A stretch of DNA of 64,000 nucleotides, from assembly GCF_006345805.1 (NCBI RefSeq), contig NC_042999.1, positions 171,864,001-171,928,000 on the forward strand, read 5' to 3'. Below are positions 30,210 through 62,011 of this stretch, one piece after another. Origin of the DNA: Octopus sinensis. Taxonomy: Eukaryota. Position 1 is the first letter of the stretch; each line of letters opens with the position of its first letter. Position numbers and translations under genes: made by a program. The notes beneath the pieces were generated by a model. That model was not told the DNA's origin. It made no database searches and worked only from the letters and a program-made list of their open reading frames with translations.

Positions 30210-30303
30210 AATACCTTCTTGGCTATAACCTTGGAGCCATAGTAATCCGTTACAGTACCCAGTCGTTTAGGTAAGAAGTGAAGTAGACTCCCGTATTATA
30301 TAT

Positions 30304-30335
<32 letters not shown>

Positions 30336-30422
30336 ATACGGGAGTCTACTTCACTTCTTATCTAAACGACTGGGTACTGTAACGGATTACTATGACTCCA
30401 AGGTTATAGCCAAGAAGGTATT
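30210..30422. repeat. Near-perfect palindrome (~90-bp arms) centred on (TA)n
   Basis: aataccttcttggctataacc...ctcccgtatta (TA)n taatacgggag...gccaagaaggtatt, about two mismatches. Confidence 0.95.
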
Positions 30423-30452
30423 GGCTATAACCTTAGATTCAAGATCAAAGTT

Positions 30453-30803
30453 AGATTCAAGATCAAATCTAACTTTACTTGTGCCTCTGAAAACATAATT
30501 TATGTCATAAAATGCTCGGGCTGCCACCAAGACTACGTGGGATCCACGGGACTATCACTCAGACGTAGATGCACACTGCATCGACAACAGATTGCATTCC
30601 CAGAATACAGAATGATACCTTTTAGTGAGCACATTGAGAAATGCACAAAGCAACTACTACCACAATTTTTAATCTTTCCATTTTACCAATGTGCTATCGG
30701 ATCATCAACACAAATTAGACTAAACAAGGAAACATTCTTCATTGAAAAGTACAAGCCCAGACTTAAACATGCCAACATACTGATACAGAGAAATTCACAC
30801 TAA
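30453..30803 (+). mobile_element. Penelope-like element GIY-YIG endonuclease domain (5'-truncated, frame open)
   Basis: RFKIKSNFTCASENIIYVIKCSGCHQDYVGSTGLSLRRRCTLHRQQI...SEHI...RLNKETFFIEKYKPRL: IY...YVG motif, catalytic R, H, E and P-L-x terminus typical of PLE endonucleases. Confidence 0.9.
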
Positions 30804-30933
30804 GGGAAAGGAAAAAAATTTTAAGCGATTATCTCTCTTACACCGGAAGAAATCACTCATTACCTCCCTTTATTTAGAACTATTTTAAACATAAACATAA
30901 CGATGACTCTATTCAACATAAACATAACGTCGT

Positions 30934-30972
30934 AAGAAATTTGAAAAGCTAAACGCGAAACCGGTCTTTCTT
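30934..30972 (+). ncRNA. Degenerate minimal hammerhead in the PLE 3' pseudo-LTR
   Basis: aagaaa-tttgaaaa-gc taaac gc-gaaac cg gtc-tttctt: 6-bp stem I, GAAAC..GUC intact, core mutated; 130 bp downstream of the GIY-YIG ORF on the same strand. Confidence 0.6.
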
Positions 30973-31145
30973 CTAAACTATGTCATTGTAAGAGAAAAAA
31001 AAATGTTATATTCTTCAAACATATTGACGCAAATATATATATATTTTAACCTTTAAGCCTTCTGTAGTTTTTTTCACTTTTTACTATTTTCTATATATTC
31101 AACCACGTGCTTTCACAAACCAACTTTCTTGTATATATATAATAT

Positions 31146-56016: not shown

Positions 56017-56895
56017 TATACGTGGTTTAATCCATAAGTATCTGGACTGTTGCCATCGTAACAAAGATAAAGCGAGTAGCGTGAAACCGCTTAGCAAATA
56101 ATGATCGTGAAATCTGCTGTGCATGCGCTCTAAATTGTAATGTTCTAGCATACATCTGCTGTTTACAGCAGTGCTTCGAAGGAAGGTGTGTAGCATGTGA
56201 TCGCCGCGTTAAACATGACAGAGAGAGATGAACAGGGAATCTTAATCAAATTTTACCAAAAGCTTGGCGATACCTACTCAGCAGCCTACGCAAAGTTTTC
56301 AAACACTTTTCATCATTCTCGACGCAATTAAAGAGATCAACTGAAACGTGAGTGTCTTTTTGGTCAGCTTAAAAGCAGTTTAGGGCACAAATTTGACAGA
56401 CATGCATCTCATACCCAAATCTTCATTGATAATGGACTGAACCGTAACTAATCATCACGTCCTCTGATAATTCACGGATGGTAATTCAACGATTTTCCCC
56501 TCATAACAGCACGCACATTTGCGTGCAGCTGTCTTTCGCTCAGTTCTGCTGGTTGCAGGTCTCCCTGAATGGTCGTGAATATCGACATTTTTTCAGATAA
56601 CTTGGAAACATCTTAACTACTCGTACATCAGTGTGCGGCTCAAACATTCCTCTCCATACATTTTCTGCAAATTTGTGAAGACCTCTGAGCAGGTGTCGGC
56701 ATAACAACTTCCTCTGTCTTGGTCAATGCGCGCTATACACCTTCTTTCCAAGCACTGCTGGAAACAGCGGAAGTGAGCTAGAACGTTAACTGTGAGTGCA
56801 CATGCACAACAGAGTTAAATGTCAATCATTTCCAAGTGGCTTGCTTCATTCTGCGTGCTTTATATTCGTTACTAAGGCAACAGACCTCATGTATA
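56017..56895. mobile_element. Two convergent mariner 5' ends (+ 56017-56305; - 56330-56895)
   Basis: Plus: MTERDEQGILIKFYQKLGDTYSAAYAK; minus: LQKMYGEECLSRT...HSGRPATSRT...ITIRELSED...EDLGMRCMSVKFVP; the two 5' UTRs align in inverted orientation. Confidence 0.8.
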
Positions 56896-57439
56896 TTAAT
56901 ATATATAACATAAAAAATAAATGCGCCCTTTTTAAAATCTAGCCAGGCTCATGGGCCCGTTTTCCCGGATTCAATGTATATTTTCACATGTATTTTAGTT
57001 AGAATTTTGCTTGTTTTTTTTATATTAATGCTATTGTTAGGTGTTCCAGTATTATGAGTATTACATATACACCTATTAGTCCGTGTGGGAAGATGAATGG
57101 AGGCGTATCGTCGCCAACACTACTGATTACTCAAAACACTATGATGTTGACTGAATGTTTGATTTTTATCACTCTCGATACATGTCCTCAGATTGCATTG
57201 ACCTCAGATTGACAGTCAGACACTCTGAAATGTTCATATTGGAACTTCCGGCGCGTATGCCAAGCAGTACAGCATGTTGTTTCCAAATTTCTGGCAGAGT
57301 GAACTGCGTAATAGTGCTGTTTTTTTCATAGATGGTGCCAAACTGACCCTTCTATACTGGACAGTCGACAAATCAAAAACAATCAATGCGCGTGCATAAA
57401 ATTAAAAATATAAATTTACCACAATTTACCCATCTAACC

Positions 57440-57475
<36 letters not shown>

Positions 57476-57520
57476 GTGTGTGTGTGTGTGTATGTTTATT
57501 TATGTATATGTATATATATA

Positions 57521-57929
57521 TATATTATATAGAGGGTACTATTATTCATAGGTACCGCACGCTAGGAGGGACTCTTGCAGTCAGAACTACTAAAATAAAA
57601 AAATTGTACCAAATGCAAAACTTCAAAGCAAGTCATTTAAAAACAGAAGTTACATATCACCTGTGATTTCGCAATCAATGCAGAATATGCATTATATGCT
57701 CTTCAGTGCAACGAACTCAAGACATGTAAGGAAACAACACAATATAGCATACCCGACAGCCAACCGTAGAATTCGTCGTAGCATGTACGAATGTTTATCT
57801 TTACATATCTATGAAAATGGCGGGCTTATTCGCAATGCATTTCGGTAACATTTTAGTAGTTCTGACTGCAAGAGTCCCTCCTAGCGTGCGGTACCTATGA
57901 ATAATAGTACCCTCTATATAATATATATA
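57521..57929. mobile_element. Element with perfect ~76-bp terminal inverted repeats in (TA)n, enclosing a hammerhead
   Basis: 57521-57596 equals reverse complement of 57850-57925; internal HHR. Confidence 0.92.
57649..57712 (-). ncRNA. Apparently intact type I hammerhead ribozyme
   Basis: gttgca-CTGAAGA-gca tat aatgca tattc tgcatt gat tgc-GAA-atcac ag gtgat-A-tgtaac: all three stems pair, core complete, AUA cleavage triplet. Confidence 0.88.
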
Positions 57930-58031
57930 AAAAAAATATTTTCAAAGTGGAAAAATTTACAGATTTTTTCTCTTACGAGGTTTTTCACGCTAACTACTGA
58001 TAATTTCTTATAAAGATTTTATCCTTAATTT

Positions 58032-58070
<39 letters not shown>

Positions 58071-61739: not shown

Positions 61740-62011
61740 CAAAACTAAGAGGAATGACCATTAAAGTGGACATCCTATATGCTAAACATAGACGTCAAAT
61801 CGCCATTACCACGAAGAATGTGTTCTCAAGAACACATTCTTCGTGGTAATGGCGATTTGACGTCTATGCTTAGCATATAAGATGTCCACAAATCGCCATT
61901 GCTACGAAGAATGTGTTCTCAAGAACACATTCTTCGTGGTAATGGCGATTTGATGTCTACGTTTAGCGTATAGGATGTCCACTTTAGTGGTCATTCCTCT
62001 TACTTTTGTAT
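61737..62011. repeat. Nested double palindrome abutting (TA)n
   Basis: Two hairpins centred on gttct-ca-agaac (~61827 and ~61920) inside outer inverted arms tacaaaactaagaggaatgacca / tggtcattcctcttacttttgta. Confidence 0.93.

Follow-up and report, generated by a model that had tools for sequence, protein, structure and literature searches.

The window analyzed here is a 64,000-nt stretch of the Octopus sinensis genome, which is 2.7 Gb in size, AT-rich, and microsatellite-rich. It contains an inverted repeat whose two 80-nt arms (57517-57596 and 57850-57929) are 100% complementary and lie 253 nt apart, as expected from a preliminary description that had reported perfect inverted termini. The same description ended the element at 57929 and treated it as a TIR-bounded unit around a core of ~250 bp. 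Both of these points need revision. A blastn comparison of a genomic monomer with the window places the right edge at ~58036, with another ~105 nt of family sequence running on past 57929, and the supposed core is just the longer of two arms.

The long arm (57521-57850, minus strand) is a 5'-truncated copy that covers positions ~7-340 of this monomer and is 96% identical to it (L005, positions 1491-1985; blastn on the window). Its ribozyme strand, which is the RNA-sense strand, is minus, and its outer (3') end, site A, lies against a TA tract in which the left limit is ambiguous by a few bases. Within this arm is a type I hammerhead motif (57649-57712, minus strand) that was recognized from its sequence and from the compensatory changes that stems I and II show between families, and that is predicted to be active. 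The short arm (57850-57929, plus strand, RNA sense plus) is an inverted, 5'-truncated copy that extends from monomer position 82 to site A and corresponds to the apparent right TIR. It meets the long arm at ~57850 with almost no gap, and a private variant at 57584 is common to both arms. The short arm alone carries a tail (57930-58036, plus strand), which consists of ~105 nt of monomer sequence past site A, ends at site B, and is 97% identical to monomer positions 390-495; its end point is the same in other copies. The ends of the window element are thus asymmetric, with site A on the left and site B on the right. Both flanks are TA repeat, namely a TA/TG microsatellite on the left (57443-57520) and a (TA)n tract on the right (58035-58067), which represent the target tract and inside which a target-site duplication is unreadable. 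The window copy amounts to less than one unit, with one hammerhead and without monomer positions ~341-389, and is therefore likely a dead end that is unable to release a monomer.

Other repeats were noted in the vicinity. A very high-copy repeat, with a summed contig depth far above that of the unique flank, lies just left of the element (57150-57320). Further left, an inverted repeat (56084-56194 and 56732-56842; 111 nt, 74% complementary, 537 nt apart) is probably an old, decayed transposon. To the right, a 93-nt unit occurs twice at 61796-61982, each time with a ~64-nt palindrome.

Reading of individual loci revealed that the element belongs to a family whose unit is a 495-nt monomer, repeated head to tail and present hundreds of times in the genome. 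With the element as query we obtained at least 130 matches, mostly 93-96% identical over its first 330 bases only, with 40 of 1710 candidates scored. Exact 29-mers taken from the left end and from the hammerhead motif have 228 and 158 genomic matches, respectively, and none when reversed as a control. For a census we fetched 130 loci, corresponding to 107 distinct ones, and chose L005 1491-1985 as the monomer reference; a less biased subset of 74 of these 107 loci holds the first 100 of the 228 left-end 29-mer places in genome order. The 107 loci divide into 46 simple two-armed, 46 single-arm, and 15 complex loci. Insertion length varies from 156 to 1152 nt among the 46 two-armed loci, inner ends are scattered over monomer positions 25-495, and arms that exceed one unit wrap into the next monomer. 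Two same-strand hammerheads are present in only 8 of 107 loci (six head-to-tail, two local duplications).

The family is low in GC and lacks protein-coding capacity. The longest stop-free frame in L005 is 52 codons on the RNA strand and 111 codons on the other, and a tblastn search with 41 proteins of Penelope-like elements (PLEs) identified no PLE frame continuous with an arm of the main family (F1), with PLE fragments lying near a few loci. No run listed as RNA turned out to contain the family. Contigs from four runs that were guessed to be RNA, and may be DNA, cover the monomer partly or wholly; such contigs cannot show ends, strand, or circles. Over L005 1491-2149, the contig differences in runs X5, X9, and X11 (guessed to be RNA) are mostly A>G and T>C. 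This excess could be due to editing of fold-back RNA or simply to other copies, and we did not take it as editing because several of the affected positions carry changes private to the reference copy and because other copies or strains look alike.

Stem III patterns designed not to match the main family have 285 and 145 exact matches, which correspond to sister families. One of these families includes a tandem array of seven units (L198 2145-5513; G000:C3:82264000+), in which unit pairs 1/3 and 2/4 are mismatch-free, a sequence pattern which suggests that a dimer was duplicated locally in addition to retrotransposition. Additional hammerhead families at L249 (4695-5407) and L250 (4780-5200) have only the stem III palindrome in common with the main family. 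The L249 sequence has a 419-nt period and, as judged by eye, an inverted and tailed layout like that of the main family.

We found the two ends of these insertions to follow a simple rule. Sites A and B are both 3' ends of the hammerhead strand, with B ~105 nt downstream of A, and 42 of the 46 simple two-armed loci combine one A with one B end. None combines A with A or B with B, and four have one or two non-standard ends; in the genome-ordered subset, the A+B combination accounts for 26 of 28 two-armed loci. The same pairing was observed in 8 of 9 two-armed loci of one sister family (27 loci) and in 13 of 13 of another (23 loci), and the tail is ~120-130 nt in sister family F2. It also extends to N1, an autonomous Neptune-like PLE in the same genome, where 11 of 13 two-armed cases among 38 loci are A+B and the tail is 43 nt. 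An exception among the complex loci is L111, where 368 nt of unrelated repeat separate two A ends.

A TA-rich repeat abuts 119 of 132 A or B ends of the family. Among the 42 A+B copies the overlap between arms, which is what appears as a TIR, measures anywhere between 0 and 447 nt; overlap is lacking altogether in six two-armed copies, and the gap at the junction ranges from -15 to +25 with a median of 0. What looks like a TIR is nothing more than the stretch over which two outward-facing, 5'-truncated arms overlap. A variable TIR length had been proposed in the preliminary description as the mark of a Penelope-type inverted end, and this is the behavior that the 42 copies display. The polarity of sites A and B, with both at the 3' end of the hammerhead strand, is as expected of target-primed reverse transcription in non-LTR and PLE insertion.

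The hammerhead motif, read from 57712 to 57649 on the minus strand, comprises stem I (GUUGCA/UGUAAC, with one G-U pair), CUGAAGA, an extended stem II, and GAA. Its stem III (AUCAC-AG-GUGAU, 57667-57656) is palindromic and the cleavage triplet is AUA, with the cut predicted after AUA, between 57655 and 57654. Rfam reported nothing at gathering score in the window and no hammerhead model around the element at E up to 10. Shuffled sequences fold as well as the isolated 64-nt motif (z -0.37), a result that is evidence neither way, so the reality of the motif rests on the family. When 14 distinct motifs are aligned, both partners have changed in 8 of 15 pairs and pairing is seen in 98.6% of cells, as opposed to 21-41% in slid controls, a comparison that draws on a few related families and in which the invariance of stem III is partly by construction because stem III was in the search pattern for most rows. 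RNAalifold recovered stems I-III unprompted from 11 whole monomers, with 25 of 87 predicted pairs compensatory, and the predicted monomer RNA fold has a z of -5.4 when circular and -4.2 when linear (-5.9 for F2). As judged from these sequence comparisons, the hammerhead appears to be selected as a structure.

The minus-strand hammerhead at 57649-57712 had already been recognized in the preliminary description, and the 158 29-mer matches and the compensatory changes in sister families bear out this type I motif. The 5-bp stem III with a 2-nt loop that the description gave it cannot close within one molecule; the monomer form is predicted to have 4 bp and a 4-nt loop instead, 1.2 kcal/mol above the MFE. 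The 5+2+5 form corresponds to a 12-nt dimer duplex, predicted at -11.2 kcal/mol, which agrees with the earlier proposal that the self-complementary stem III might support dimer action. We also judge the predicted ribozyme to have been rightly taken as a pointer to an RNA intermediate. Inner ends are not piled up at the predicted cut (5 of 92 fall in that 12-nt bin, similar to its neighbors) and 51 of 92 arms run through the site, so a circular or uncleaved template fits, and the truncation pattern gives no sign of ribozyme cutting. A recent preprint (10.64898/2026.07.22.740005; Li, Clavereau and Pollet 2026) reports cleavage in one of nine predicted Xenopus dimers, so the activity of a predicted hammerhead is not to be assumed.

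A comparison of the two arms within individual insertions provided information about their template. Opposite arms within an insertion differ by 3.8% on average, as compared to 5.1% between insertions (58 pairs from 38 insertions, the pairs not being independent). Rare variants common to both arms number 14, against a mean of 0.9 and a maximum of 4 in 500 controls. At sites that are polymorphic between subfamilies, the arms agree in 100 of 106 comparisons where 62.4 would be expected; the best single site agrees in 22 of 22 (p 3e-7), and the other sites are linked. The two arms of a copy thus trace back to a single RNA or a single source locus. The common variants could also have arisen by conversion of one arm by the other once inserted, a process that would have to leave the 3.8% difference in place.

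Six changes are private to the window copy, one of them a 4-bp deletion immediately 3' of stem I. In number of rare variants the copy is 98th of 115, above most others (one flagged column is a junction artefact). Some of these private changes may have been inherited from the template. The arms of this copy show 0 differences in 69 columns, an outcome with a chance of ~7% given the 3.8% mean. Identical arms had earlier been taken as a sign of recent insertion; they are weak evidence of youth, and given the six private changes and the rank of the copy we rejected that reading.

The window also contains a copy of N1. This 5'-truncated copy (30230-31130) includes a GIY-YIG frame (30396-30803), has its 3' end at a TA tract, and has an inverted junction centered on (TA)n at 30297-30338. 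N1 is abundant (16273 first-look candidates), and its 3' region contains, as judged by eye, a minimal hammerhead-like motif whose core is of the U3-A8 type and which includes a palindromic ACCGGU. Several other PLE families are present at L285-L314. The commonest of these has a minimal hammerhead-like end with a palindromic ACAUGU and long, internally repeated 3' regions, and L294 and L295 resemble host GIY-YIG nuclease exons and not PLEs.

We searched for a helper among these elements. The retrozyme, as we call the 495-nt unit from here on, has no significant DNA similarity to N1 ends or to 30 GIY-YIG loci (of 150 scored). At loci of N2, a second Neptune-like element, inspection of neighboring copies by eye found retrozyme sequence only as separate insertions or at one junction. 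No autonomous parent emerged among N1, N2, the 30 GIY-YIG loci, or matches to patterns that exclude known families, the latter giving sister retrozymes and unrelated PLE ends; this search sampled a small part of the PLE copies in the genome. The retrozyme carries a canonical hammerhead with a long stem III, whereas N1, N2, and other PLE ends have minimal motifs. Three loci that we considered as a retrozyme-PLE link (L190, L234, and L229) were rejected, since the TA repeat between the neighbors is a common target. At a further locus (L247 4338-7435; G000:C2:106038500+), a sister-family arm joins N2 exactly at site A, without TA. N2 is C-rich and 5'-truncated there, and the 3' ends of N2 throughout the genome share 99-100% identity. 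This single case possibly reflects a template jump and might point to the helper.

We consider it very likely that the window element represents a non-LTR retrozyme that was inserted as two 5'-truncated arms and probably entered the TA tract by means of a PLE RT-EN acting in trans. A head-to-tail source locus of two or more monomers, examples of which exist in the genome, would be transcribed, and cleavage by its hammerheads would set free a monomer able to circularize, by analogy with coral, mussel, and axolotl retrozymes. A PLE RT-EN would then bind the retrozyme RNA and cut both strands of a TA tract, as in vitro work on PAc suggests by analogy; TA targeting as such is evident from the ends of the family insertions. 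Each DNA end would prime reverse transcription, one at A and the other at B, ~105 nt downstream, with both ends copying the same RNA or RNA from one source, consistent with the variants common to both arms. The strict A+B pairing is observed, and we infer from it that the two sites are RT start sites. Finally, the two cDNAs would stop at scattered points and their truncated ends would be joined with little or no gap. The inverted repeat left behind would be the overlap of the arms, 80 nt in the window copy. Several observations count against this explanation: the lack of a pile-up at the cut, the small number of dimers, the lack of a homologous PLE end among the elements searched, the arrangement at L111, a tail of ~105 nt (~120-130 nt in F2) where the literature gives 30-40 bp for PLEs, and the in vitro findings of PMC11167929 that the RT start site is alike on both strands and that insertion is insensitive to ribozyme mutations.

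The inverted arm could instead have formed when a single cDNA, or an antisense template, primed itself (snap-back) and asymmetric loss followed, without two separate RNA primings. A snap-back model was reportedly put forward by Arkhipova et al. in 2013. It accounts for the variants common to both arms and for the near-zero junction gaps. Self-priming has also been proposed for PLE palindromes (PMC3846280). We regard it as unlikely here, because fold-back alone is unable to build either strand of the window copy, in which positions 83-340 are found on one arm only and the tail is confined to its partner, the six copies without overlap need extra loss, and the fixed A versus B ends require a separate cause. 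This alternative touches only the priming and joining of the arms and leaves the identity of the element as a retrozyme unchanged.

Less probable still is that the 495-nt unit consists of stub insertions of the pLTR of an autonomous PLE outside those found, and is not an independently propagating retrozyme. The end geometry is identical to that of autonomous PLEs, both N1 and those in PMC3846280 and PMC8557442, and the genome harbors many PLE families, its PLE complement having only been sampled. This interpretation nevertheless seems improbable, since long arms continue into a further monomer, never into coding sequence, arrays reach seven units in a sister family, the canonical hammerhead with its long stem III is unlike the minimal motifs of N1, N2, and other PLEs, and the whole monomer has a structure with compensatory pairs. 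An insertion of a retrozyme thus remains the preferred explanation over a PLE fragment. A DNA MITE with a captured hammerhead, moved by a transposase on 76-80 bp TIRs, would fit a perfect inverted repeat in TA-rich sequence that has no ORF and many copies, and is extremely improbable given the variable overlap (0-447 nt) and one-sided tail, which rule it out, together with the variable insertion length (156-1152 nt), asymmetric ends, tandem monomers, and the single arm of half of the simple loci (46 vs 46).

MITEs are non-autonomous class II elements. The window copy resembles them in being short and non-coding, with inverted ends and a TA context, whereas the family has no fixed TIR or length, asymmetric ends, tandem monomers, and a retroelement polarity. 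By its parts, the family is a non-LTR retrozyme, a known kind of element, that works like a PLE insertion. The parts are known, and the architecture has already been published for PLEs; the strict pairing, the single template, and the long tail in a true retrozyme render an open question of mechanism readily testable.

Non-LTR retrozymes were defined by Cervera and de la Pena (2020; PMC7229834), who name PLEs as likely helpers. Like metazoan members of this group, the octopus family is a non-coding, low-GC tandem repeat with one type I hammerhead per unit, is found as monomers to multimers, has a strongly self-paired predicted RNA, and co-exists with PLEs. Its 495-nt monomer exceeds the 150-450 bp given in PMC7229834 and falls within the 51-972 bp given for units in the preprint (10.64898/2026.07.22.740005), where the PLE helper is backed by co-occurrence and pLTR similarity. 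Across these two sources, the retrozyme-PLE link consists of ribozyme type, co-occurrence, and pLTR similarity. For the octopus family, the elements searched yielded no pLTR homologue, but the insertion geometry is PLE-like. The word 'inverted' is absent from the main text of PMC7229834, and the accessible portion of the preprint describes neither inverted arms nor a tail. Palindromic stem III, dimer action, and opposite-strand ribozyme pairs 100-700 bp apart are described in PMC4209133. Our search of titles and abstract starts retrieved nothing on the family or on tailed, inverted retrozyme insertions; subscription papers, Repbase, and supplements were largely outside its scope, and the family may be catalogued there.

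The closest structural parallels are provided by EN-positive PLEs, of which the Neptune type occurs here. PLEs with an inverted truncated copy and, at one end only, a tail of 30-40 bp are described in PMC8557442 and PMC3846280, a structure restated for curators in PMC8969392. Work in PMC11167929 found that both strands are cut and extended and that two RT start sites bound the tail. It also found the RT start site to be the same on both strands and ribozyme mutants to have no effect on insertion in vitro. The family has in common with EN-positive PLE insertions partial tandems, an inverted 5'-truncated copy at the 5' end, a tail on one end, an AT-rich or microsatellite target, and a hammerhead upstream of both 3' ends. 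In contrast to these elements, it has no RT or GIY-YIG ORF, its tail is ~105 nt as opposed to 43 nt in N1, and its hammerhead is canonical, with a 12-nt palindromic stem III region, and not minimal.

A further parallel is Chlamydomonas MRC1 (PMC8557442), which is likewise non-coding, head-to-tail, and multicopy, and was initially placed in another transposon class for its terminal structure. The 3' end of MRC1-type elements resembles that of an autonomous partner and their clade lacks canonical hammerheads, according to the same text, whereas the hammerhead of the family described here is conserved.

A broader reading, which we offer tentatively and hold at somewhat below an even chance, is that retrozymes of animals owe their integration to a dimeric Penelope enzyme bound to a single small RNA, probably a circle. 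Reverse transcription would proceed from both cut strands at two different fixed sites, one per subunit, with the retrozyme having stretched the A-B spacing to 105-130 nt, or threefold the spacing in autonomous elements. Recognizable sequence similarity to the helper would not have been kept, so RNA structure would be the signal. If true, this would be the first insertion-level evidence of PLE mobilization of retrozymes and would provide a 0.5-kb substrate for testing the origin of the PLE tail and inverted ends.

How retrozymes enter animal genomes and how PLE tails and inverted ends originate are both stated to be open questions in the cited literature. The octopus family ties these two questions together, as a tandem retrozyme with a PLE end signature, a near-strict rule of one A and one B end, and arms traceable to one template. 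Copies of this kind will be mislabeled as DNA MITEs by TIR-based tools. The family offers a short, ORF-free test substrate and structural evidence for the use of Penelope machinery by retrozymes.
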